DNA of 64,000 bases from an uncultured Saprospiraceae bacterium. Lineage in GTDB: Bacteria; Bacteroidota; Bacteroidia; Chitinophagales; Saprospiraceae. The notes under the pieces were generated by a model that saw only the letters and a list, made by a program, of their open reading frames with translations, was not told where the DNA came from and did not search any database. Numbering within the stretch: position 1 is the first letter of the stretch; every line of letters begins with the position of its first letter. The stretch is taken from positions 5 through 64,004 of the forward strand of contig CAZDSU010000040.1 in NCBI GenBank assembly GCA_964508135.1. Direction: 5' to 3'. A program made the position numbers and the translations under genes. Below are positions 3,066 through 60,208 of this stretch, piece by piece.

Positions 3066-3159
3066 ATAGACATTAGACGTAGACATTAGACATTAGATGG
3101 GGTATAGTGCCTTACAATGTCCGCTGTCTAATGTCTAATGTCTATCGTCCAATGTCTAT
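3066..3159. repeat. Inverted array of GACATTA heptamer words between accB and accC
   Basis: The left arm is atagacattagacgtagacattagacattagat (3066-3098). The right arm is gtctaatgtctaatgtctatcgtccaatgtctat (3126-3159), its imperfect complement. The right arm ends 1 nt before the accC ATG at 3161. Confidence 0.85.
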
Positions 3160-4512: not shown

Positions 4513-4582
4513 ACTGTGAACTATGAATTGTGAACTGTGAACGGGCGAACAGTTCACAATTCACCGTTCACCATTCACAGTT
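4513..4582. repeat. Inverted array of CTGTGAA heptamer words between accC and pcm
   Basis: The left arm actgtgaactatgaattgtgaactgtgaac (4513-4542) pairs imperfectly with the right arm gaacagttcacaattcaccgttcaccattcacagtt (4547-4582). The element starts 6 nt after the accC stop and ends 2 nt before the ATG at 4585. Confidence 0.85.
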
Positions 4583-4584
4583 CG

Positions 4585-7250: not shown

Positions 7251-8620
7251 CACCCGGACAACCACTCCCGAAACACATCTTCCACTTCTGCCCCGTTCCA
7301 CTTCTCCTCCAAGCCCTTGATTTTCAGCATCTTATTGAACAACTGCTCATGTCGTGTCACCTCTGCCAGCGCCCGGCTGTACGGCACATGGCTGAAGCTC
7401 ACCATTGAATATACAGACTGGAACTCCTTCGGAAACCGTTCGTGCAGGTGCTTTTCGATTTTTTTCCAAAGCAAAAACTTGGGGTCTGCGACCTTGTCCC
7501 GCATTTCAATGAAGTTCAGGAGGGCCAGGTCGGCGATGGCGTTCGAGTCCTCGGGTCGGTTGGCGTTGAATTCCTCGATGATGGCGGGCCATTCTTCTTC
7601 GTACTTGTCCATCAGGCTGTCAAGGATGGTACAGTCCTCGAAGCCACAGTTCATGCCCTGCCCGAAGAACGGCACAATGGCATGGGCGGCATCACCGAGC
7701 AGCAAAATCTTGTGGCGGTAGTGCCAAGGATTGCAGCGCACCGTGACCAGCGCCGAGGTTGGATTCTCCGTAAAATCCTGCACCAATGTGGGCATGAGCG
7801 GGATGACATCCGGGAAGTATTTTTCGAAAAAGGCCATCACCTGCGCCTCCGATTTCAAGTTTTCAAACGAAGCCTCGCCCTCGAACGGAAGGAACAGCGT
7901 ACAGGTAAAACTGCCGTCCACGTTCGGTAGTGCGATGAGCATGAACTGGCCCCGTGGCCAAATATGCAGGCCGTTGATGTGCATCCGGTGGCCGCCGCCT
8001 GCCTGTCCGGTAGGCAGGTTTTCGGCTGGCGGAATGGAAAGCTCCTTGTACCCGTAATCAATATACTGCTGTGAATAATTGAACCGGGGCAGCTTTTGCA
8101 GGCTTTGCCGCACGGGCGAAAACGCACCGTCCGTCCCAAAAATCAGGTCGCTCTCGATGGCGTATTGGACGCCCGTGCGGGTGTCCTCGAAGCGCACCGA
8201 ACTGTTGTCGAGGTCAACGCCGAGGCAGGCCTGGTTGAAATGGAAGCGCACTTGGCTGAACTCGTCGGCGATGTTCACCAGTTCGATGTTCAGCCCACCA
8301 CGGGAGACCGAGTAGATGGCCTGCCCCTCTTCGCCGTAAGGTTGATAGGTGAGCGACCCGTCGGTGCCGTGCATCATGCGGCCCGGCATGGGAATGGCCA
8401 CGGCCTCGATTTTTTCACGAATGCCCGCAATCTCCACGGCCTTCCAGCCCCGCTCGCTCAGGGCTAGGTTTATCGAGCGCCCTCCCACGTAGCCCGCTTG
8501 CCGGAAGTCGGCCCGGCGTTCGTACACGTCCACTTGGTATCCCCGTTTTGCCAAAATGACCGCCCAGAGTGCGCCGACCAACCCTGCACCGACGATGACT
8601 GCTTTTTTTTCGTTTGCCAT
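7247..8620 (-). CDS. kmo: Kynurenine 3-monooxygenase (FAD-dependent)
   Basis: 457 aa. The Rossmann motif is VIVGAGLVGALWAVILAKRGYQVDVYERR. It also has RSINLALSERG, and GDAAHAIVPFFGQGMNCGFED, which is typical of KMO-type aromatic hydroxylases. Confidence 0.82.
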   Translation of the reverse strand: MANEKKAVIVGAGLVGALWAVILAKRGYQVDVYERRADFRQAGYVGGRSINLALSERGWKAVEIAGIREKIEAVAIPMPGRMMHGTDGSLTYQPYGEEGQAIYSVSRGGLNIELVNIADEFSQVRFHFNQACLGVDLDNSSVRFEDTRTGVQYAIESDLIFGTDGAFSPVRQSLQKLPRFNYSQQYIDYGYKELSIPPAENLPTGQAGGGHRMHINGLHIWPRGQFMLIALPNVDGSFTCTLFLPFEGEASFENLKSEAQVMAFFEKYFPDVIPLMPTLVQDFTENPTSALVTVRCNPWHYRHKILLLGDAAHAIVPFFGQGMNCGFEDCTILDSLMDKYEEEWPAIIEEFNANRPEDSNAIADLALLNFIEMRDKVADPKFLLWKKIEKHLHERFPKEFQSVYSMVSFSHVPYSRALAEVTRHEQLFNKMLKIKGLEEKWNGAEVEDVFREWLSGC

Positions 8621-8626
8621 TTATTT

Positions 8627-8705
8627 GGGTTAGGAGGTTTTGAGGGTTTTGAAGGTTTAGAGGGTCGTGATTAAACCTTCTAAACTTCCTAAACCTTCTC
8701 AACCC
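8627..8705. repeat. Inverted array of GGTTTnGA-type words in the kmo/aroB divergent spacer
   Basis: The left arm is gggttaggaggttttgagggttttgaaggtttagagggt (8627-8665). The right arm is aaaccttctaaacttcctaaaccttctcaaccc (8673-8705), an imperfect complement. Confidence 0.8.
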
Positions 8706-8746
8706 ATTCAAGTTTTGCCCCAAAACTAGGACGTTTTTGGTGAAAA

Positions 8747-9868
8747 ATGCCCGCCCAATTGCTAATCTTGCGCATGTTTATACTTCATCTAAACGAGTAC
8801 GAAATTTCCATCGGGGAAATGGGGCAGCCGCTCCGATCGCTGGTTGCCGGAAGCAACTACACGAAAATCGCCGTGCTGGTGGACGCCAACACCCGCCGTC
8901 ATTGCTTTCCCTATTTCTTACAAAGCATTGATTTTGAGGTAGTTGCCATCGAAATACCCACAGGGGAACGGTTCAAGAACCTCGACATTTGCAGCTTCAT
9001 CTGGTCTGAAATGATGCGCCACGGCCTCGACCGCCGCTCGCTGCTCATCAACCTCGGCGGTGGTGTCATTGGCGACATGGGCGGCTTTTGCGCTGCCACC
9101 TACCTGCGGGGCATTGACTTCGTGCAGGTGCCCACAACCCTCCTCTCGCAAGTGGACGCCTCGGTCGGCGGCAAGGTGGCCATTGATTTCAACGGCGTAA
9201 AAAACAGCATCGGCGTCTTCCAAAACCCCAAGGCCGTGTTGGTTGACCCCGTTTTTTTGAAAACCCTGCCCCTCACCGAAATCCGAAGTGGCTTCGCCGA
9301 GGTGTTCAAGCATGCGCTGATCGCCGATGCAGCGCAGTGGCAGGACTTGCAGCAAATCACCGACCTGATGGTGGTGGACTGGGCGAAGTTCCTCGCCCCC
9401 TCATTGTCCATCAAAAAACGCATCGTGGAGGAAGATCCGCTCGAAGGTGGCATCCGCAAGGCACTGAATTTTGGACATACCATCGGACATGCAGTGGAAA
9501 GCCATGTTTTGGGAATTGGGAATTCTAGCTCCCAATTCCCCATTTCCCCATTTCCCAATTCCCAACTATCGCATGGCGAAGCTGTTGCCTTGGGCATCGT
9601 CTGCGAGAGTTGGCTGTCGCACAAACTGTTGGGGCTTTCCTCAGCGGAACTGGGCGAGATAGTTGCGTTCGTGCGACGGTTTTACCCCCACCATCCGCTT
9701 GCAGAAAGGGACTTTCCAGCCATTTTTGATTTGATGAAAAAAGACAAGAAAAATGTGGGCGGTCGCATCAATTTCACGCTGTTGTCTGTCATTGGGCGGG
9801 CGAGGATTGACCAATATTGTGGGGTTGTGGTGATTGAGGAGAGTTTGCGGTTTTATAGGAGTTTGTAA
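8747..9868 (+). CDS. aroB: 3-dehydroquinate synthase
   Basis: 373-aa ORF with LINLGGGVIGDMGGFCAATYLRGIDFVQVPTTLLSQVDASVGGK and the metal-binding block LNFGHTIGHAVE...HGEAVALG. The start is uncertain (ATG 8747 or 8774). It contains an in-frame repeat insertion, listed as the next feature. Confidence 0.85.
   Translation: MPAQLLILRMFILHLNEYEISIGEMGQPLRSLVAGSNYTKIAVLVDANTRRHCFPYFLQSIDFEVVAIEIPTGERFKNLDICSFIWSEMMRHGLDRRSLLINLGGGVIGDMGGFCAATYLRGIDFVQVPTTLLSQVDASVGGKVAIDFNGVKNSIGVFQNPKAVLVDPVFLKTLPLTEIRSGFAEVFKHALIADAAQWQDLQQITDLMVVDWAKFLAPSLSIKKRIVEEDPLEGGIRKALNFGHTIGHAVESHVLGIGNSSSQFPISPFPNSQLSHGEAVALGIVCESWLSHKLLGLSSAELGEIVAFVRRFYPHHPLAERDFPAIFDLMKKDKKNVGGRINFTLLSVIGRARIDQYCGVVVIEESLRFYRSL
9509..9565. 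repeat. Palindromic CCCAATT-word element embedded in frame in aroB
   Basis: The sequence is ttgggaattgggaatt-ctagct-cccaattccccatttccccatttcccaattcccaa. The core gggaattggg (9511-9520) pairs perfectly with cccaattccc (9531-9540). It encodes GIGNSSSQFPISPFPNSQ between the two His-containing metal-site blocks. Confidence 0.8.
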
Positions 9869-18444: not shown

Positions 18445-19260
18445 TCACGTGCGATCCTTCGAAAACAACTGCTTCACCGCAGAAACCACAAACCCCGACA
18501 AGTTCATGTACGGTGGTTTCATCAACAACTGCACCCCGGTCAGCCCGACCCAACCAGCCATGGCAGCAAACGACAGGTCACCGAAACGGGTGAAGCCTCG
18601 GAAGTCGTGCATGTTGAGCCGCATCAGTTCGTACATCACAAAATCGGTGACGATATAGGCGCTGTTCACCCAGAACAGCAGCAGCATGACTCGTAACATG
18701 CGCCGCAACACCAGCGCCTCGTAGAGCTGCTGGCCACCCTCCTGTTTTTTGCGGAGCGCCGAAACCTTAAACCGGATGTAACGGTACGCCGCAAACTGGT
18801 AAGTGTAAAAGGTGAAAATGTAAAGTGCCATCTCCAGCCCACCATAAAATGGCGAATAAAACCGCCGTATCAAAAGCCCATCCGTCAGCAGCCACGCACC
18901 GAGAAAATAGGCAAACTGCGTCAGCGGAAGCAGTGCATGTTTGGCGTCGCTGCCCACAAACTTGTAGGTAGGGAACAGCCGCAACTTCACCGAAATATAC
19001 AACAGCACCCCGAACGACAGGGTGAAATACAGTGGCAGCGAAGTCAGGTGCGGGTTGGCGTGGTAGATGCCCCGCAGGATGAAAATATGGTGCAGCGCCG
19101 TCAGGGCATAGGCCATCAACAGCCCGAAAAAAGCGAGGTCGGCCCGCTTGTTCTCGTTTTTGCGGAGCAAAAAAACGACGGCCACCGCCCCGTTCAGTGC
19201 GACCGTTGCGCAAAGAACCAGAAAGGACAAGGTGGTTAGCGTTCCGGTGAAGAAATTCAT
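18445..19260 (-). CDS. Hypothetical polytopic membrane protein
   Basis: 271 aa with about 7 hydrophobic segments and no recognisable soluble domain or catalytic motif. Confidence 0.55.
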   Translation of the reverse strand: MNFFTGTLTTLSFLVLCATVALNGAVAVVFLLRKNENKRADLAFFGLLMAYALTALHHIFILRGIYHANPHLTSLPLYFTLSFGVLLYISVKLRLFPTYKFVGSDAKHALLPLTQFAYFLGAWLLTDGLLIRRFYSPFYGGLEMALYIFTFYTYQFAAYRYIRFKVSALRKKQEGGQQLYEALVLRRMLRVMLLLFWVNSAYIVTDFVMYELMRLNMHDFRGFTRFGDLSFAAMAGWVGLTGVQLLMKPPYMNLSGFVVSAVKQLFSKDRT

Positions 19261-19341
19261 TGTTGAATTGCTATATTGTTGAATTGCTATATTGTTGAAT
19301 TGCTATAAAACAATACAACAATATAGCAATTCAATAATCAA
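19260..19341. repeat. Three perfect tandem 16-mers (TTGTTGAATTGCTATA) plus a complementary arm
   Basis: The copies are at 19260-19275, 19276-19291 and 19292-19307. The complementary arm is caatacaacaatatagcaattcaataatcaa (19311-19341). The element fills the spacer between the PBP4 stop and the membrane-protein start. Confidence 0.9.
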
Positions 19342-20690
19342 TTTCCCTCGTACACCCCCTTCAGCACCCGCTCCATTTCCTTGCGGAGTGCGCTCATGCT
19401 GCCGGTGTAGTTGTTGTGCATGAAGCTGAAAATCAGGAGCTTGCCTTTTTTTGAAATCAGGTAGCCGCTCAGGTTGTGGTTATTACGGAGCGTACCGGTT
19501 TTGGCGAAAATATAGGGAGTGCCGCCATTGCGATAGTAGTCCTTGATGGTGCCATTGACGCCCCCGGCTGGGAAGATGCCAAACAGCCTCTCCCTCGGCA
19601 CCATTTGCTGGATTTTGCTCAGCAATGCCACCAATGAGCGGGGCGTCACGAGGTTGTACCTCGACAGACCGGAGCCATCCACCCATTTTGGCTCGTCGGG
19701 CAGGTCGTTGAGCAGGTTTTTCTTCGCAAAATCAATGGCCTGCTCGGTGTTCATCGTCCCAGTTCGCTGCCAGGAGCAGAGCAGCAGCAGTTGCTCCGCA
19801 ATGAAATTGTCGCTCTCCTGCATCATCAACGTGTAGAGGCTGTCTGCCTTGAGGCTGTACAGCGTTTTGGCGTCGGGAGGTGGCAACATGTTTGATTCCA
19901 GTAGGCTCACTTGTCGCTTGAGTGTGTCGGCCAGCACTTCGGTAATAAAGTGGGGCGTGGCATGAAACGGTACGTGCATCTCGAACTTCTTCCCGGTTTT
20001 GGCCAAAGTGTTTAGGGTAAACTGGTTCTCGTATTCAACCCGCCCGACGAAATCGTCTTCGTGGAGGGTTGAGTCATAATCGAGCGTTTTTGCCAAAAAA
20101 GCGGGCTTAACCTGAATGCCTCCTGTCGTGTCATTTTGGATAAAATGAGCGACATTAGCGTAAATGGGCAGCGGCGTTTTTTCCGATTGATAGTCGTAAA
20201 AATTGTCGTCCCACATCCAGCCAGAGCCATAACGTTGATCCTTGTAATTGGCGGGGCAGAACAGCAGTTGCTCCCGGCTGTTTTTCAAAAAATCAAAGAC
20301 CTGCGGGTTCTGCGTCAAGTGCGGGTTCAGAAAGCTGGGGTCGCCCGTGCCCCAGAACACGAGCAGGTTGCCTTGGCGGCTGTACTGCAATGCGGGTATG
20401 GAGTCGCCAAGTGTGCGCAGACTGGTGTACAGCGTCAGGATTTTTGTGTTGGAAGCTGGCGTGAAATACTTGTCAGCGTTGAACTCGTAGAGTGTTTTGC
20501 CCTCGGCGGGATCGTAGAGCGAAAACCCCGTGAACGCCTTTTTGAAAACTTCGGAGTCTTCGAGGTGGAGGTCATAAACCTTGGCTTCGACAGTCTCTTT
20601 TTCGGCTTTTTTCTTTTTGTTTTTTTGGCAAAAAGCACTGAAGGGCAGCAGCAGCGCCGTGGCGAAAAGTAGGAGGGTGAGTTTTTTCAT
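19338..20690 (-). CDS. dacB: D-alanyl-D-alanine carboxypeptidase/endopeptidase (PBP4, peptidase S13)
   Basis: 450 aa with a signal peptide. It has the SxxK motif in TPASNTKILT and the KTG motif in FAKTGTLRNNHNLSGY. Confidence 0.82.
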   Translation of the reverse strand: MKKLTLLLFATALLLPFSAFCQKNKKKKAEKETVEAKVYDLHLEDSEVFKKAFTGFSLYDPAEGKTLYEFNADKYFTPASNTKILTLYTSLRTLGDSIPALQYSRQGNLLVFWGTGDPSFLNPHLTQNPQVFDFLKNSREQLLFCPANYKDQRYGSGWMWDDNFYDYQSEKTPLPIYANVAHFIQNDTTGGIQVKPAFLAKTLDYDSTLHEDDFVGRVEYENQFTLNTLAKTGKKFEMHVPFHATPHFITEVLADTLKRQVSLLESNMLPPPDAKTLYSLKADSLYTLMMQESDNFIAEQLLLLCSWQRTGTMNTEQAIDFAKKNLLNDLPDEPKWVDGSGLSRYNLVTPRSLVALLSKIQQMVPRERLFGIFPAGGVNGTIKDYYRNGGTPYIFAKTGTLRNNHNLSGYLISKKGKLLIFSFMHNNYTGSMSALRKEMERVLKGVYEGN

Positions 20691-31432: not shown

Positions 31433-34411
31433 TCACTCCCGAATGATAGCATCGTACACCGCATCCTGCACCTTCACACGCGTGTTCAGCTTCGTCAATT
31501 TGTTGTTCTTCATGCTAGGAAAAGTGCGGTTGGAGAGGAAGACGTAAATCAGTTCCTCCTTCGGGTCAACCCAGACGGCAGTGCCGGTGAAACCGAGGTG
31601 GCCGAAAGTAGCCTCGCTGGCCTTCGTCGAGAGGTTGTTCTCAAAATGCGTATTGTGCTCGAACATGTCGAAACCGATGCCCCTGCGGGTGCAGCCTTTG
31701 CAGCGGGTGGTGTAGTAGTTGATGGTCTCTGGGCGCAGGTATTGCATCCCGGCGTAGCTGCCCTTGTTCAGGAGCATTTGCATGAGTACGGCCAAATCCT
31801 CGGCGTCGCTGAATAGCCCGGCGTGGCCTGTGGCTTGGTTGAGCATGGCAGCGCCCATGTCGTGCACATAGCCTTGGATGCGGCGATCCCGGAAATAATT
31901 GTCGTTTTCCGTGGGTGGTATGCGTTCCAGCGGGAACTTCTCGTAGGGGCGGTAGGTCATGGTCTGGAGGCCGAGCGGCTGGTAAAAATTTTGCTTAGCA
32001 AAATCTTCGATGGGCATTCCGCTTTGCCGCTCCACGATTTCCCCGGCGATGTAGAAACCGAGGTCGCTGTACCTGTATTCCTTCGATGGGTCCAGCGGGC
32101 TGTCCATGATTTCTTGCCAGATTTCCTTTTCGTAGCCCGCCTTCAGCCAGAGGTTTTTTGCCACGGGCATTGGGAAGGCATTGCTTTTTTTGGTTTGGTA
32201 AAAATTGGGCGAAGGCTTGGCGGAAATGGTGATGGTTTTTTCATAAAACTTAATCCACGGCATCAGCCGCCCCCGGTGGGTCATCATGTCCACGAGTGGT
32301 ATGCCCTTTTTGTTCGTATTGGCGAACTCCGGCAGGTACTTTTCCACGGGGTCTTTCGGGTCAAATTTGCCGTCTTCCTGCAACCGCATCAGCGAGATGG
32401 TGCTGGCCGCAATCTTCGTGATGCTCGCCAAGTCCCAGATGTCGTCCGGCTCGGTGGGGTGAGCGTTTTTGTCGTAGGTGTGATGGCCGTACGACTTCCT
32501 CCAAACGATTTTTCCCCGCCTCGCCACCAGCACCACACCGCCGGGCAATGCGCCTTCAGCAATTGCTTCGGCCATCAGTCCGTCCACTTTTTCCAGCTTG
32601 CTGCTGCTCACGCCCACCTCCTCGGGTACGCCGTAGCCGAGCCGTTCGACGGCCTCCGTGGCGATACCCGTGCCAGCGGGCAATTGCGCCGAAGCGGTCA
32701 CGGGCAGCTTTCCCCGCAGGGGAAACACGCCAAAAAGCGCTTGCGCAGCCAAGTCCTGCACCTCGTCATCTTCCTCGTAGCAAACCAGCAGGTTCGGCAC
32801 GTTTTCAAAAAACTTGGCGGCGTAGGGGTTGCCAAACATCACCAGCACCACACGGGTTTGCTTGCGCAATGCCTCAATAAAATCCTTCGTGCCCTGCGTC
32901 AGCCCGTAACCTTTCGAGGCGAACTGGCTCATGTCGTGCAGGCTTACAATTACAGCGTCCTTGTCTTTCAGCCTCGCAATCAGCGAACTGGAAATGTCCT
33001 TGCCGGAGGTGAACGTCTCTATTTTTCCGAAGGAACTTAGTCTTTTGTGAAACGAATTGCCGCTTCCTGCCCCAATTGCCAGCGCTGCCAATCTAGCAGG
33101 CCCTAACTGCACACTGCCAACTGTCGAACTGCCAACTGGAAGAAAACTGTCGTCATTCTTCGCCAAGGTCAGCGCATTCGCAATCAACTCCCGCTTGACA
33201 GCGAGGGCAGGTGCATCGTTCACGTCGGCTCGCACATTTTCGAGGGGCATTGGCTGGTAGCTGGTGATGCCCATTCGGTGCTTCCAAAGCAGCACTTTTT
33301 TCACGCTGGCATTCACGGCATTGGAGTCGAGCTTGCCATTGGTTAGCCACTGTTTCACGGTACGGAAGGCGGCGTCCACATCGCCGGGGAGGAGCAGCAC
33401 GTCGTTGCCAGCGGCAAGGGCACGGGCCTCCACCTCGCCCTTGCCGAAGTGCTTGGTCACGGCCTGCATTTCGAGGGCATCGGTGAGGATGAGGCCCTTG
33501 AAATTCAGCTTGTTGCGTAGCAAATCCGTCACCACCTTGGGCGAAAGCGACGATGCCAAATTGGGTGTGCTGTCGAGCGCAGGCACGTTCAAGTGGGCAA
33601 TCATCACGCTGCCCACGCCCTGTCGGATTAGGATTTTGAAGGGGAAAAGCTCTACGCTGTCGAGGCGCCCGATGGAGTGGTTGATTTGGGGCAGGTCGTA
33701 GTGGCTGTCGGTGCCTGTGTCGCCGTGGCCGGGGAAGTGCTTGGCGGAGGCCATCACGCCGTTGTCCTGCATCCCGAGCATGTACTGGTAGGCTTTTGCG
33801 GCCACGTTGTACGGGTCTTCGCCGAAGCTGCGAAATCCGATGACGGGATTGGCGGCGTTGTTGTTCACGTCAGCCACTGGTGCAAAGTTGACGTTGACGC
33901 CGACCCGCTTGCAGTGCTTCGCAATCTCGGCGCCCATGCGGTAAATTAGCGTGTTGTCTTGGATGGCACCGAGCATCATTTGGTGGGGAAAGCTCATGGC
34001 CGTGCCCCGCATCCTCATGCCGAGGCCCCACTCGCCGTCAATGGTGATGAACATGGGCAGTTTGGTGCTCAGGGCTTGGTAGCGGTTGGTGAGTTCGACC
34101 TGTTTTTCGGGTGTGCCTTTGGCCGTGGGGTTGAAGAAGCAAAGGCCGCCGGGCTGGTATTTTTTCACGAGGTTTTCCACGGCTGCTTCGTATTCCGAGT
34201 CCTTGTCGGTGTGCGCTCGCAGCCAGAAGAGCTGTCCGAGGCGCTCGTCGGTGGTGAGGGTGGCGTAGGCGCTGTCCACCCAAGCGGTCTCTTGCAGGTG
34301 CTTCTCGAAGCTGGGCATTGGCTGGGCTGCCTGCCGAGTGAAGGACGTGGCAGACACCAGTAGATAGGCCAACGCAATGAGGAGGAGTGAAAAGGTCTTT
34401 TTCAAAATCAA
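31433..34411 (-). CDS. GH3 beta-N-acetylhexosaminidase (NagZ-like) fused to a serine beta-lactamase/PBP-like hydrolase domain
   Basis: 992 aa. GH3 blocks are FITIDGEWGLGMR and AKHFPGHGDTGTDSH. The C-terminal half carries an SxxK motif (ASITKIAAST) of class C beta-lactamase-type esterases. The start looks like a TTG. Confidence 0.86.
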   Translation of the reverse strand: MILKKTFSLLLIALAYLLVSATSFTRQAAQPMPSFEKHLQETAWVDSAYATLTTDERLGQLFWLRAHTDKDSEYEAAVENLVKKYQPGGLCFFNPTAKGTPEKQVELTNRYQALSTKLPMFITIDGEWGLGMRMRGTAMSFPHQMMLGAIQDNTLIYRMGAEIAKHCKRVGVNVNFAPVADVNNNAANPVIGFRSFGEDPYNVAAKAYQYMLGMQDNGVMASAKHFPGHGDTGTDSHYDLPQINHSIGRLDSVELFPFKILIRQGVGSVMIAHLNVPALDSTPNLASSLSPKVVTDLLRNKLNFKGLILTDALEMQAVTKHFGKGEVEARALAAGNDVLLLPGDVDAAFRTVKQWLTNGKLDSNAVNASVKKVLLWKHRMGITSYQPMPLENVRADVNDAPALAVKRELIANALTLAKNDDSFLPVGSSTVGSVQLGPARLAALAIGAGSGNSFHKRLSSFGKIETFTSGKDISSSLIARLKDKDAVIVSLHDMSQFASKGYGLTQGTKDFIEALRKQTRVVLVMFGNPYAAKFFENVPNLLVCYEEDDEVQDLAAQALFGVFPLRGKLPVTASAQLPAGTGIATEAVERLGYGVPEEVGVSSSKLEKVDGLMAEAIAEGALPGGVVLVARRGKIVWRKSYGHHTYDKNAHPTEPDDIWDLASITKIAASTISLMRLQEDGKFDPKDPVEKYLPEFANTNKKGIPLVDMMTHRGRLMPWIKFYEKTITISAKPSPNFYQTKKSNAFPMPVAKNLWLKAGYEKEIWQEIMDSPLDPSKEYRYSDLGFYIAGEIVERQSGMPIEDFAKQNFYQPLGLQTMTYRPYEKFPLERIPPTENDNYFRDRRIQGYVHDMGAAMLNQATGHAGLFSDAEDLAVLMQMLLNKGSYAGMQYLRPETINYYTTRCKGCTRRGIGFDMFEHNTHFENNLSTKASEATFGHLGFTGTAVWVDPKEELIYVFLSNRTFPSMKNNKLTKLNTRVKVQDAVYDAIIRE

Positions 34412-34658
34412 GCCGTTGTATTGAAGGGGCTAAGTTAAGATGATTTGGCGATGGGACGGTTTTTTGACATTGTGAAACATGGCATTTCATCTTTGAAAAT
34501 CTAAAATTTGAATTTAAATTTTCAAGGATGAAATGCCTCAATGAAACCCCAAACATTGTCAACGGGGAGTGGACTCCCACGATTTTGGATGCAATGGTTG
34601 CCACGAATTTTATCAATTTTCACGGATAATTATGCCCATGTTTGCTCCGCAATAATTT

Positions 34659-35840
34659 ATGTTGTCCAAAACTATGGCCGGACTTTACCTTCATATCCCT
34701 TTTTGCAAACAGGCTTGTCACTACTGCAATTTCCATTTTTCGACTTCCCTCAAGTTGAAGGATGAAATGGTGGCCGCCATCCTGCGAGAGTTGGCACTGC
34801 AAAAAGACTACCTCGGAGGCGAGCCGCTGGAGACCATTTACTTTGGCGGTGGCACGCCCTCACTCCTCAACCAGCGTGATTTGGATTTGATTTTTGGTGA
34901 AATTTTCAAGCACTACCCACTTGCAAGTGACGGCGTGACTTTGAGTCACGCCGTCACTAAACCTAGCCTCGAAATCACATTGGAGGCTAATCCAGACGAC
35001 TTGAACCCATTGAAAATCAAGGAATTGCGACAAACGCCCGTGAACCGCCTGAGCATCGGCGTACAGTCTTTTTCGGAGGCAGACCTGCGCTTCATGAACC
35101 GGGCGAACAATGCCTCGGAGGCGCTTGCCAGCATCCAAAATACCCAAGCAGCGGGCTTTGATAACCTTTCGGTTGACCTTATTTACGGCTCTCCAACTAC
35201 CTCTCACGAACAATGGGCGGCGAACTTGGAGCAGGTTTTCAAGTTGAAAATCCCGCACCTCTCCTGCTACTGCCTGACCGTGGAGCCGAAAACTGCCCTC
35301 GCCCACCAGATAAAAAAGGGCACCGTTCAGCCTGTTGACGACGAACATGCCGCTCAACAGTTTGAGTTTTTGATGGAAAAAACGGCGCAGGCAGGCTACG
35401 AGCATTATGAAATCAGCAACTTGGCCTTGCCCGGCCACTATTCCCGCCACAACACGAGCTACTGGCTGGGCAAAAAATACCTCGGCATCGGCCCATCGGC
35501 GCACTCGTTCAATGGCGTGAGCCGCCAGTGGAACGTGGCGAACAATGCTGCCTACATCCGCTCCCTGCAAGTGGGCGAGCTGCCTTTTGAAATAGAAGTG
35601 CTGACGCCGACCCAGCGTTACAACGAGTACGTGATGACGGGGTTGCGCACCAAATGGGGCTGCAATCTATTGAAAATCAAGGAATTGGGATTTGAAGTGC
35701 ATTTCGACGAAGGCGCAAAATCATTTTTGGCGGATGGCACGATGGAGCGGGAGGGCGATGTGTTTAGGCTAACTCAAGCGGGTCGGTTCTTGGCAGATGG
35801 GATTGCGGCGGAGCTTTTTGCGGAGGAGGGAAATGGTTGA
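34659..35840 (+). CDS. hemW: Radical SAM heme chaperone HemW / oxygen-independent coproporphyrinogen oxidase-like protein
   Basis: The CxxxCxxC cluster motif is in LYLHIPFCKQACHYCNFHF. It also has GGGTPS, EITLEANP and a HemN_C-like C-terminus. The start is ATG 34659 or 34674. Confidence 0.85.
   Translation: MLSKTMAGLYLHIPFCKQACHYCNFHFSTSLKLKDEMVAAILRELALQKDYLGGEPLETIYFGGGTPSLLNQRDLDLIFGEIFKHYPLASDGVTLSHAVTKPSLEITLEANPDDLNPLKIKELRQTPVNRLSIGVQSFSEADLRFMNRANNASEALASIQNTQAAGFDNLSVDLIYGSPTTSHEQWAANLEQVFKLKIPHLSCYCLTVEPKTALAHQIKKGTVQPVDDEHAAQQFEFLMEKTAQAGYEHYEISNLALPGHYSRHNTSYWLGKKYLGIGPSAHSFNGVSRQWNVANNAAYIRSLQVGELPFEIEVLTPTQRYNEYVMTGLRTKWGCNLLKIKELGFEVHFDEGAKSFLADGTMEREGDVFRLTQAGRFLADGIAAELFAEEGNG
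34926..34958. repeat. Perfect 15-bp-stem palindrome in frame inside hemW
   Basis: The sequence is agtgacggcgtgact-ttg-agtcacgccgtcact. The arms are exact reverse complements. It encodes SDGVTLSHAVT just before the conserved EITLEANP block. Confidence 0.92.
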
Positions 35841-51042: not shown

Positions 51043-51103
51043 GGTTTGGTTTCAGGTTTAAAGTTTCAGGGTAGGCCCTGTCTGAAACCTGAAACCCAAA
51101 ACC
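51043..51103. repeat. Inverted array of GTTTCAGG words
   Basis: The left arm is ggtttggtttcaggtttaaagtttcaggg (51043-51071). The right arm is ccctgtctgaaacctgaaacccaaaacc (51076-51103). It lies in the divergent spacer upstream of the phosphoesterase gene. Confidence 0.8.
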
Positions 51104-57697: not shown

Positions 57698-60208
57698 TTA
57701 ACGCCGAATCAGCGCTCCAAGTTTTCCCTCAAACGCCTCGATGAGTTCGCTCATCACGGCGTCCACCTCCTTGTCCTGCAAGGTGCGGGTCGGGTCTTCG
57801 AAGGTGAAGCTCACGGCGTAGGACTTTTTGCCCTCGCCGAGCTTGGTTTCGTCTTCAAAGACATCGAACAAATTTATATCTTTCAACAGCTTTTTACCAA
57901 CTTTTTTGGCAACGGCGGCAAGGTCGCTAAATTTTACGGATTTACCAATCACCACCGCAAGGTCTCTGCGCACGGTAGGGAATTTGTTCAGATCCGCAAA
58001 ACTGATGGACTGTTTTTTCGCTGCCGCCAGCAGGGCGTCCCAATTCAGGTCGGCGTAAAAAACCTCGCCCCGGATGCCCATTTTCTTGCAAACTTTCGGC
58101 TGCACCTTCCCGAATGTCACCAAATCCTGCGGCCCCCGGTGGTACTTTATGCCGTAGGCAAAAACGTCGTCTTTCACCGCCGTCTCCTGAAAACCGCCAC
58201 CGACGCCAAGGCGGGCGAGTACATTGCCCACAATGGACTTCAAAGTGAAGAAATCCGCCGAAACCTTCTCCTTGTTGCGCCAACTTTCTGGGTATCGTTG
58301 ACCGGTTAAGAACAAAGCAAGATGCTGTGGCTCGGCATAAGCCAATTTACCACCGCTCTTTTGCTCCCCCTCCTTGGGAGGGGGCTGGGGGGAGGCCGTG
58401 TACGTCTTGCCAAACTCGAACAACTTCAAGTCCATCTGCTGGCGGTTCTGGTTGTTCACCACCGCCTCTAAGCCGCTGAACAGCATCGTGGGGCGCATGA
58501 TGTCGAGCTGCACGTTGCTCGTGTTGTTCACGAAGACGAGTTCGCTTGCTTCCTTCGGCAAAATTTCCTTGTAAAACGTTGATTGCGAGAGCGATAGGCT
58601 CATCACCTCGTTGAAGCCGTTGGCCGCTAGGTAGTCGGCGACGGTATTGCGCACGGCGTTCGGGTCGGGCTTCTCGCTGCTCACCATGCTGCTGCGGATT
58701 TGCGCAGGGGCGGGCACGTTGTCGAGGCCGAAGACCCGCAGGATTTCCTCCACCACATCGGCGGGACGGGTCACGTCGGCCTTGTTCGTCGGTACGCTGA
58801 CGATGAACGAATCACCATCAAGCGACTCCCCCTTGAGGGGGTTGGGGGGCAACATTTCCAGCGCCGAGAGGATTTCCTTGATTTTTTCCTTCGGAATTTC
58901 CATCCCAATGAGGCGGTTCACGTAATCGTAAGTCACCGCAACCTGCTGGTTTTCAATAGGTTTTGGATAAACGTCCACCACTTCGGAAGCGATTTCACCG
59001 CCCGCCAATTCCACTATCATGGCCGCTGCCCGTTGCAGGGCATACACGCAAACGTTCGGGTCACTGCCCTTTTCAAAAACCTTGGCGGCGTCTGTGCGAA
59101 GGTCGTGGCGGGTACTGCTGCGGCGAATCCATTTAGCGTTGAAATGGGCGCTTTCGAGGAAGATGTTTCGGGTCGTGTCCTTCACGCCCGACTTCGCACC
59201 GCCGAAGACGCCGCCGATGCACATTGGCTTCGAGTCGCCGTCGCAAATCATCAAGTCATGGTCGCTGAGGCTGCGCTCCCGGTCGTCGAGGCTTTGAAAT
59301 TTGGTGCCTTCCGGCAATGTTTTCACGATGATTTTCTGCCCAGCGATTTCATCCAAATCGAAGGCGTGGAGCGGCTGGCCCAGTTCATGGAGGATGAAGT
59401 TCGTCACGTCCACGATATTGCTGATGGGCCGCACCCCGACGGAAAGCAGCCGTTTTTTCAGCCAGTCGGGCGACTCGCCGATGGTCACGCCCTTGATGCT
59501 CACACCTGCGTAGCGGGGACAAGCCTCGGCGTTTTCAACGGTCACTTCGACGGGCAACAGATATGTCATGTTTTCAAAACATGACATATCTAGCTCCGGC
59601 ACTTTCACGCCGCCCGTTTGCCCAAACTGTACTTGCAACGCAGCCGCCAAATCCCTTGCCACGCCGAGGTGGCAAGTGGCGTCAGAGCGGTTCGGCGTCA
59701 GGCCGATTTCATAGACAACGTCTTTTTCGAGCTTGAAATAGTCCCGCCCGGTGGTGCCGATGGGCGTATCGGCGGGCAGCACGAGGATGCCGCTGTGGTC
59801 TTCGCCCATGCCGAGTTCGTCGGCAGCGCATATCATGCCCTGCGATTCCTCGCCCCTGATTTTGCCGAGCTTCAGCGTGAGCGGTTCGCCGCCAGTGGGG
59901 TAGAGCGTGGTGCCGATGGTGGCCACGAGCACCCGTTGCCCGGCGGCCACATTGGGCGCTCCGCAAACGATTTGGAGCAGTTCGCCCGTACCGATATCCA
60001 CTTTGGTGAGGCTGAGTTTGTCGGCGTTCGGGTGCCGCCAGCATTCCTTCACCTCGCCCACGACGACGCCTTGCAGCCCGCCCTTGATGCTTTCCACTTC
60101 CTCCATGCCCTCCACTTCGAGGCCAAGGCTGGTGAGTAGGTTCGAGATTTCATCGGGCGATAGGTTGATGTCCAGGTATGTTTTGAGCCAGTTTAGCGAT
60201 ATGGTCAT
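57698..60208 (-). CDS. pheT: Phenylalanine-tRNA ligase beta subunit
   Basis: 836 aa. It has the N-terminal tRNA-binding OB domain (ISLNWLKTYLDI...VVVGEVKECWRHPNADKLSLTKVDIG), B3/4 and B5 domains and a C-terminal FDX-ACB domain (KSYAVSFTFEDPTRTLQDKEVD). Confidence 0.95.
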   Translation of the reverse strand: MTISLNWLKTYLDINLSPDEISNLLTSLGLEVEGMEEVESIKGGLQGVVVGEVKECWRHPNADKLSLTKVDIGTGELLQIVCGAPNVAAGQRVLVATIGTTLYPTGGEPLTLKLGKIRGEESQGMICAADELGMGEDHSGILVLPADTPIGTTGRDYFKLEKDVVYEIGLTPNRSDATCHLGVARDLAAALQVQFGQTGGVKVPELDMSCFENMTYLLPVEVTVENAEACPRYAGVSIKGVTIGESPDWLKKRLLSVGVRPISNIVDVTNFILHELGQPLHAFDLDEIAGQKIIVKTLPEGTKFQSLDDRERSLSDHDLMICDGDSKPMCIGGVFGGAKSGVKDTTRNIFLESAHFNAKWIRRSSTRHDLRTDAAKVFEKGSDPNVCVYALQRAAAMIVELAGGEIASEVVDVYPKPIENQQVAVTYDYVNRLIGMEIPKEKIKEILSALEMLPPNPLKGESLDGDSFIVSVPTNKADVTRPADVVEEILRVFGLDNVPAPAQIRSSMVSSEKPDPNAVRNTVADYLAANGFNEVMSLSLSQSTFYKEILPKEASELVFVNNTSNVQLDIMRPTMLFSGLEAVVNNQNRQQMDLKLFEFGKTYTASPQPPPKEGEQKSGGKLAYAEPQHLALFLTGQRYPESWRNKEKVSADFFTLKSIVGNVLARLGVGGGFQETAVKDDVFAYGIKYHRGPQDLVTFGKVQPKVCKKMGIRGEVFYADLNWDALLAAAKKQSISFADLNKFPTVRRDLAVVIGKSVKFSDLAAVAKKVGKKLLKDINLFDVFEDETKLGEGKKSYAVSFTFEDPTRTLQDKEVDAVMSELIEAFEGKLGALIRR
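58366..58384. repeat. GC-rich mini-palindrome in frame inside pheT (copy 1)
   Basis: ccccctcc-ttg-ggaggggg has a perfect 8-bp stem. On the coding strand it encodes part of SPQPPPKEGEQ. Confidence 0.8.
58828..58841. repeat. GC-rich mini-palindrome in frame inside pheT (copy 2)
   Basis: ccccc-ttga-ggggg encodes part of PPNPLKGES on the coding strand. The sequence is related to copy 1. Confidence 0.7.

Follow-up and report, generated by a model that had tools for sequence, protein, structure and literature searches.

The hemW gene on a 64,000-nucleotide stretch of contig CAZDSU010000040.1 (positions 5 to 64,004, forward strand) of an uncultured Saprospiraceae bacterium (assembly GCA_964508135.1), hereafter called the window, contains in frame a perfect 33-nt hairpin, which is one copy of a dispersed family of palindromic repeats of Bacteroidota; the family probably behaves like the mobile hairpins known as repetitive extragenic palindromic (REP) sequences and Rickettsia palindromic elements (RPEs). 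The 33-nt unit occurs at non-homologous sites without target-site duplication, mostly just downstream of genes, and the copy in hemW would be a tolerated passenger without a function specific to this gene. The element, its parts and its host gene are located in the window as follows.

34926..34958, no strand assigned: palindromic element of 33 nt that belongs to the GGC/GCC subfamily of the AGTGAC-N3-GTGACT family; this copy lies in frame inside the gene and encodes SDGVTLSHAVT.
34926..34940, plus strand: left arm AGTGACGGCGTGACT, with two GTGAC pentamers 8 nt apart and the variable middle triplet GGC.
34941..34943, plus strand: loop TTG, which reads CAA in locus L081 and in sequencing run X4, and TTA in locus L082.
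34944..34958, plus strand: right arm AGTCACGCCGTCACT, a perfect inverted repeat of the left arm.
34923..34925, plus strand: one-sided GCA flank (TGC/TGG on the opposite strand), common to 7 of the 11 copies of the GGC subfamily.
34674..35840, plus strand: hemW, the host gene, for a radical-S-adenosylmethionine (SAM) haem chaperone, identified by its TIGR00539 score, its orthologues and the solved relatives HemN (1OLT) and NocN.

The two arms form a perfect 15-bp inverted repeat around the 3-nt spacer, and pairing stops at the arm ends, the flanking a/a being unpaired in the hemW copy. A preliminary description of this DNA, made from the letters alone, had reported such a perfect hairpin in frame inside hemW, encoding SDGVTLSHAVT upstream of the EITLEANP segment, and had considered a perfect stem of this length very improbable as a product of chance. 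Position, stem and loop were confirmed, the translation holds in frame 0 of the hemW open reading frame (ORF), and simple arithmetic yields an expectation of only about 5e-4 perfect 15-bp stems in the window (4^-15, taken over 8 loop sizes and about 64,000 positions). Folded as RNA, the hairpin has a free energy of -28.9 kcal/mol (z -6.8, reached by 0 of 200 shuffled sequences), and folded as DNA it has one of -18.8 kcal/mol (z -9.7).

The reality of the sequence is supported by independent reads and assemblies. In run X2, an independent one from drinking water, a contig of 251 nt extends across the hairpin into the flank on either side and shows 0 differences; run X4, from groundwater, contains a diverged hemW with an identical stem and the loop CAA, and two further assemblies (L081 and L082) hold the hairpin at the same hemW site. 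In the source-like run X1, short-read unitigs end inside the hairpin and the depth rises from about 9x in the hemW flanks to about 350x in the hairpin, the words of which are about 40 times deeper than the flanks and run out into many differing loose ends; this jump in depth, together with the breaks, is the signature of a repeat. The stopping of unitigs inside the hairpin might also be taken as a sign of an assembly, chimera or adapter artefact, but the X2 contig bridges the hairpin, the element lies in frame in three lineages that were assembled independently in different projects and carry lineage-specific substitutions, and its occurrence is limited to related Bacteroidota. The probability of such an artefact is close to nil.

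Copies were searched for with one genome per species, nearly all of them metagenome-assembled genomes (MAGs). The exact stem, with any loop, was found at 10 loci in 9 species of Saprospiraceae and Lewinellaceae, in unrelated flanks and with the loops TTA, TCG, TGG, TTG, CAA, CTA and CAG; the MAG that holds L081 has two such loci, one in hemW and one in a family 2 (GT2) glycosyltransferase gene. A relaxed pattern, GTGAC-N3-GTGAC-N(3-9)-GTCAC-N3-GTCAC, returned at least 117 loci, and about 100 copies have the common build A-GTGAC-NNN-GTGAC-T, a loop of mostly 3 nt, and A-GTCAC-N'N'N'-GTCAC-T. Hosts are nearly all Saprospiraceae, Lewinellaceae or other Saprospirales/Chitinophagales, with a few other Bacteroidota MAGs, and single MAGs hold at least 11-12 copies; all these numbers are lower bounds, since short-read assemblies break at palindromes. 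The pattern leaves six triplet positions free, and in 71 of 78 copies these pair without a mismatch; among 46 distinct sequences compensatory changes occur at the three free pairs in 17, 5 and 7 cases, and the covariation score was reached by 0 of 500 shuffles. In the same 46 sequences the GTGAC positions are invariant, as is the foot AGTGAC/GTCACT. Triplet types are largely specific to a genome (one MAG has 11 CTG copies, another at least 12 CGG copies), apart from the GGG type, which is widespread; GGC is the type of the hemW copy.

Viral contigs gave 0 matches to the exact pattern, a search of RNA runs turned up none with the hemW locus, and an Rfam scan of positions 34300-35600 at E<=10 gave no match to the hairpin. 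A literature search found neither the arm sequences nor a description of this hairpin family, and the family of short palindromic repeats is apparently undescribed. Matches outside the Bacteroidota (Planctomycetota, Chloroflexota and others) were left out as members, since they have a different build with arms of the type (GTGACAAG)n. Such hairpins, with runs of the octamers GTGACAAG and CTTGTCAC as arms, were caught by the relaxed pattern at L130, L131, L136, L115, L162 and L176; they come from Planctomycetota and Chloroflexota MAGs, L136 alone being labelled Saprospiraceae, and may represent a parallel class of tandem-octamer arms in other phyla.

With respect to genes, which for this purpose were called by a crude longest-ORF heuristic, long ORFs contain 20 of 95 copies, and the others are intergenic, usually some tens of nucleotides 3' of a stop codon, in spacers that are co-directional in 40 cases, convergent in 8 and divergent in 5. 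Phase 0 is shared by all 20 of the copies inside genes, which encode SD(G/R/L)VTxSH(A/P/Q)VT. The restriction to this phase follows from the TGA that the other two frames meet inside GTGAC on either strand, so that copies in genes survive solely in the TGA-free frame, where they add an 11-residue hydrophilic peptide, SDxVTxSHxVT. Intragenic hosts include the GT2 glycosyltransferase of L095, a protein with an N-terminal hydrophobic segment, resembling a transmembrane segment, followed by a STAND/NTPase-like region (L094), and three hybrid sensor kinases (L102, L103 and L181) that carry the copy in the inter-helix loop of the HisKA domain. In the GT2 orthologues the same loop holds a GGC-type copy in L095, a decayed GGC-type copy in L210 and a CGG-type copy in L211, while many orthologues are without a copy; permissive loops are thus hit more than once. 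The HisKA inter-helix loop of the hybrid sensor kinases P0346, P0262 and P0260, paralogues related to L102, holds other repetitive inserts, such as PISNFPISQFLISNF and PLSISQFLISKISIS.

The host gene in the window is a genuine hemW. The product scores 249.1 bits against the HemW equivalog TIGR00539 (cut-off 205.4), its radical-SAM CxxxCxxC motif reads FCKQACHYC, and the nearest solved structures are NocN and HemN (1OLT). Translation probably begins at the ATG of position 34674 (MAGLY...), which matches the orthologues, whereas the mechanical ORF begins at 34659. The preliminary description had offered an in-frame insertion of a hairpin element as one reading, and this is supported by the recurrence of the identical 33-mer at unrelated loci in other genomes and by an 11-codon excess in alignments, which comprised 22 species-genome sequences out of 80 fetched and the 24 closest database relatives. 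The window protein is 11 residues (33 nt) longer than all 22 other aligned species-genome sequences, and 22 of the 24 database relatives are likewise 11 residues shorter, the difference falling in the loop between the helix that ends ...FKHYP and the strand LE(I/V)TLEANP. No orthologue has the 11 residues without the palindrome, and the sequence is confirmed by independent reads, so that neither of the two findings which the preliminary description had named as refuting has come up. Among the relatives compared, the insert is shared only with P0001 (L081; 94% identical) and P0003 (L082; 86%), while it is lacking in P0002, which is 91% identical to the window protein.

A neighbour-joining tree of HemW, built without the loop, groups the sequences as (P0002,(window,P0001)) with 100% bootstrap support and (P0003,(P0004,P0007)) with 88%, and the carriers of the insert are polyphyletic. 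Such a distribution requires at least two gains, lateral transfer, or at least three losses that restored the original length. For the two hemW lineages that bear the insert, sliding-window identity is 0.72-0.81 and does not rise around the hairpin; recent gene conversion over a tract longer than the element itself is therefore not supported. In an AlphaFold2 model (25-sequence alignment; mean predicted local distance difference test score, pLDDT, 87; predicted template-modelling score, pTM, 0.86), the insert, residues 90-100 of the 393-aa ORF, is predicted to occupy a disordered loop between helix alpha2 (residues 72-85) and the EITLEANP strand (105-110), with residues 92-101 at pLDDT <50. 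From the architecture of radical-SAM (beta/alpha) barrels, we take this loop to be at the N-terminal strand end, on the barrel side opposite the [4Fe-4S]/SAM site, and a permissive position is plausible. In other Saprospiraceae, the same loop of hemW holds in-frame heptamer repeats, (CCCTCAT)n encoding SLIPPSSSLIPRPSSLIPPSS.. in L212 (1001-2185) and (CCCCTCA)4 encoding PLTPHPSPLTP in L213 (1001-2131), which makes the loop a general hot spot for insertions of simple repeats.

Flanks and loops of the copies bear signatures of how the element may move and change. Direct 3-mer repeats flank only 3 of 103 copies and 4-mers 1 of 103, and this lack of target-site duplication argues against a DDE transposase. 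An inverted extension of the stem into the flanks, of at least 4 bp and up to 24 bp, is present in 29 of 103 copies and is different in each. GCA or CCA stands directly 5' of 7 of the 11 GGC-subfamily copies, including those in hemW and GT2, and on one side only; this flank might reflect a preferred target or serve as a tag. The loop TTG of the window is replaced by its exact reverse complement CAA in L081, the 94%-identical orthologue, as well as in X4, with all 30 stem bases unchanged, and two neighbouring copies in L123 with a common left flank have the loops CCC and GGG. The ORFs between paired copies (L110 and L132) are ordinary genes. In one Saprospirales MAG, L096 (5492-5727) and L139 (7248-7490) contain three copies each at spacings of exactly 101 nt and 103 nt; the 103-nt units of L139 are 83% alike, and the triplets are therefore tandem duplications rather than arrays with unique spacers. 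In L093 (2684-2739), an extra solitary left arm, together with an 8-nt flank (GTCAAGA-AGTGACGGCGTGACT-T), has been tandemly duplicated directly upstream of a full copy, which suggests slippage at the hairpin.

A mechanism that would account for these properties can be envisaged. Insertion would probably proceed via a single-stranded hairpin intermediate, on which an HUH/Y1 (RAYT-like, i.e. resembling a REP-associated tyrosine transposase) or similar hairpin-specific enzyme, encoded elsewhere in the genome, might act in trans. After insertion, the palindrome would stay perfect while the loop inverts and flanks are sometimes converted to extra stem, and the likely cause of the perfect stem, the loop flip and the growth into flanks would be intrastrand template switching at the extruded hairpin.

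Several observations weigh against a mobile hairpin that is merely tolerated in hemW. Of 4,647 ORFs, from the window and from the surroundings of about 130 copies, none resembled a Y1/HUH transposase in a search confined to these regions (phmmer with E. coli TnpA-REP and IS608 TnpA as queries, validated against PDB 4ER8 and 2A6M, plus an HUH...Y regular expression). The exact hairpin had 0 matches in the metagenome contig collection of the Joint Genome Institute (JGI), an uninformative result that may stem from palindromes breaking short-read assemblies. In protein alignments the 11-codon gap fits three equally good registers, and as the loop is also variable the exact boundaries of the insertion cannot be fixed; no empty allele was found that is near enough to set them to the nucleotide, and the junction predicted for a precise excision, TACCCACTTGCAAAACCTRGCCTCGA, gave 0 matches in metagenome contigs, which is equally uninformative. 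Conservation is a further point. The hemW hairpins of the window and L082 are identical at 31 of 33 positions (29 of 30 in the stem), compared with 81% for the gene and 64% for third codon positions, and in the three sensor-kinase orthologues the stems are identical at 30 of 30 positions between flanks of 62-65% identity. This conservation of some orthologous copies is far beyond neutrality and is not predicted by a pure passenger model: self-templated correction keeps a palindrome perfect but does not keep its sequence constant, so that re-insertion at hot spots, concerted evolution or selection is implied at some sites.

A functional explanation has also to be considered, in which the family is a motif used by the host and the hemW copy is kept for a role of its structure in cis. 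The hairpin might form RNA 3' ends, act as a terminator or stabilise transcripts, be bound by a sequence-specific RNA- or DNA-binding protein, or be the target of a nuclease. Besides the conserved kinase and hemW stems, it is favoured by the invariant pentamers with a covarying triplet, by the strong bias to sites just 3' of stop codons, and by the pattern of decay in L210, where two of five stem changes make up one compensatory pair (A:T to G:C), two keep a G.U pair on the sense strand and one produces an end-pair mismatch. Against it, most hemW orthologues do without the insert, including the one at 91% identity, and other copies decay freely, as seen in L210 itself, in the degenerate versions encoded by the related kinases P0245 (SDGVAQNHPVT) and P0250 (GDALALAHPAN), and in the L082 stem, where one disruptive G to T change leaves a U.C mismatch; moreover, no U-tract follows the hemW copy and no Rfam family matches. 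We consider a host function unlikely, yet it keeps some weight because copies are conserved at orthologous sites and lie preferentially at the 3' ends of genes. The other reading offered in the preliminary description, a functional mRNA structure that would be particular to hemW, found no support, since the insert is missing from most orthologues and the element also occurs in unrelated genes and spacers. It is conceivable, though rather unlikely, that the AGTGAC-N3-GTGACT hairpins are a new repeat class outside the RAYT systems, held identical in nucleotide sequence even inside coding sequences by an active sequence-specific system, such as re-homing, templated repair of copies already present, or the use of the copies, intragenic ones among them, as regulatory sites by a hairpin-binding protein or an RNase. 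If true, such a system would also explain the flip-flop of the loop and the growth of the palindrome into flanks, and the pheT palindrome and the hairpins with tandem-repeat arms described below would point to a general process in this lineage that generates or propagates hairpins.

Two further explanations concern the origin of the element. Its arms are formally terminal inverted repeats, and it could be read as a minimal miniature inverted-repeat transposable element (MITE) of a DDE transposase, with two 15-nt ends and a 3-nt spacer resembling an insertion sequence (IS) circle junction, moved by cut and paste; 35 of 103 copies are flanked by TA...TA, which can be read as a TA duplication. 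However, the inner A and T are present in 98 and 100 of 103 copies and the outer T and A in only about 54%, so that TA is not a uniform duplication, and the idea of a TA target duplication was rejected on these flank statistics. Direct repeats of at least 3 nt are as rare as stated above, the hemW copy itself is flanked by AA...TA, and no transposase was seen between two solitary arms. A MITE is therefore very improbable. The palindrome might also be a local product of hemW itself, formed de novo when replication switched template or folded back and copied neighbouring sequence in the inverted orientation. Perfect palindromes are known to arise by template switching, and in one register the outer GTCACT aligns with ancestral Val-Thr/Ser codons. 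Yet the identical 30-nt stem is present at 10 unrelated loci in 9 species, in a family of more than 100 copies, and a local accident is excluded because it cannot recreate the same sequence repeatedly; we regard a de novo origin as extremely improbable. A dispersed, mobile hairpin thus remains the preferred reading of the hemW element.

It is useful to compare the family with known systems. With REP sequences and REPINs it has in common a palindromic unit of 20-40 nt (here 33 nt, with a 15-bp perfect stem), many dispersed copies that are mostly extragenic and downstream of genes (here about 75% intergenic), the absence of target-site duplications, and sequence variants that are specific to a genome. 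On record for REPs are also occasional in-frame copies inside genes, symmetric 'double-foot' forms (RAYT subclass 2.4; Cyanobacteria and Bacteroidetes), and RAYT subclasses of Bacteroidetes that have 'atypical secondary structures' at their flanks (PMC3733652, PMC6006769). The family differs in that its foot is AGTGAC, with no GTAG, GTGG or CGTC tag and only a weak one-sided TGC/GCA flank in the GGC subfamily, its stem is perfect whereas that of REPs is bulged, and its copies are mostly singletons instead of REPIN doublets, the two clusters that were inspected being the tandem 101-103-nt duplications. Furthermore, no RAYT was found in the searched flanks of roughly 130 copies, about 20% of the copies are intragenic, and loop flipping and copy-specific palindromic extension into flanks are prominent. 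Membership of the REP-RAYT systems is not established.

RPEs are about 100-150 bp long, add some tens of residues to a protein and are known only from Rickettsiales. The family unit is smaller (33 nt, 11 aa) and belongs to free-living Bacteroidota, and a likeness of sequence to RPEs was not noticed, no tool comparison having been made. The resemblance lies in the use of genes: RPEs are palindromic repeats inserted in frame in protein-coding genes, housekeeping genes included, where they leave the host protein intact and add a peptide in a permissive surface region (PMC3733652), and the copies described here are in frame in hemW, GT2, sensor-kinase and STAND-like genes with the host ORF preserved. 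With MITEs, the family shares the character of a miniature, non-coding, inverted-repeat-bearing element near genes. MITEs (for example Correia/NEMIS, RUP and Nezha) are, however, 70-300 bp long and have an internal region and target-site duplications, both of which are absent from the family element. Elements of the IS200/IS605 type are likewise dependent on hairpins and produce no target-site duplication, and the short flank, GCA or CCA, that directly precedes 7 of the 11 GGC-subfamily copies recalls their target/guide tetranucleotide. They have distinct left and right ends instead of one symmetric hairpin, however, and no TnpA or TnpB was found in the flanks of the copies; the resemblance may lie in the way of working rather than in membership. 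A CRISPR array was rejected because most copies are solitary, the L096 and L139 triplets are tandem duplications and the 'spacers' are 83% alike. An intrinsic terminator was rejected as well, the hemW copy being followed by AAACCTAGCC without a U-tract; in the GGG subfamily, T-runs precede the stem and A-runs follow it, which is the reverse of a terminator.

The window contains other hairpins. A second palindrome, also perfect and 33 nt long but unrelated in sequence, is located at 59559-59591; it reads AGATATGTCATGTTTT-C-AAAACATGACATATCT, with a 16-bp stem and a 1-nt loop. Within pheT (57698-60208, minus strand) it is in frame and codes for ..DMSCFENMTY.., which lies in a variable surface loop. 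Relatives, none of them more than 68% identical, have a loop that is shorter by only about 2 residues. An unrelated locus of another Bacteroidota MAG (L216, 4847-4879) carries this palindrome too. Long hairpins with tandem-repeat arms are located at 1729-1813, 3067-3149, 4516-4583, 8620-8711, 9509-9565, 19252-19345 and 51045-51099. They consist of 7-16-nt units followed by their inverted repeats, with a different unit in each, for example (TAGACAT)n...(ATGTCTA)n, TTGGGAATTGGGAA/TTCCCAATTCCCAA and (ATTGTTGAATTGCTAT)3, and the hemW element resembles them in its build of two 8-nt units per arm. Directly upstream of hemW, the divergent spacer between this gene and a GH3/beta-lactamase fusion gene (31433-34411, minus strand) holds a 25-bp, 92% complementary hairpin at 34481-34537, for which Rfam gave only meaningless miRNA-like matches.

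For the annotation of these bacteria, the consequence is that the 11-residue insert in HemW is repeat DNA and not an adaptive feature of the protein, and the peptide signature SDxVTxSHxVT marks such copies in any Saprospiraceae proteome. Hairpins of this kind are probably under-counted in MAGs because they break short-read assemblies. The family carries no GTAG tag and no RAYT was found near its copies, while some of the copies are frozen in nucleotide sequence across genera, and it is therefore suited for testing how REP-like repeats are maintained, whether by a dedicated enzyme, by a function for the host or by self-correction of the palindrome. The colonisation of protein loops by in-frame palindromes is best known from the RPEs of Rickettsia, to which a second natural system, in free-living Bacteroidota, can now be added. 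With only 33 nt, its unit is small enough to study the rules by which insertions are tolerated in proteins, as well as the fate of perfect palindromes through loop flipping, arm correction and conversion of the flanks.

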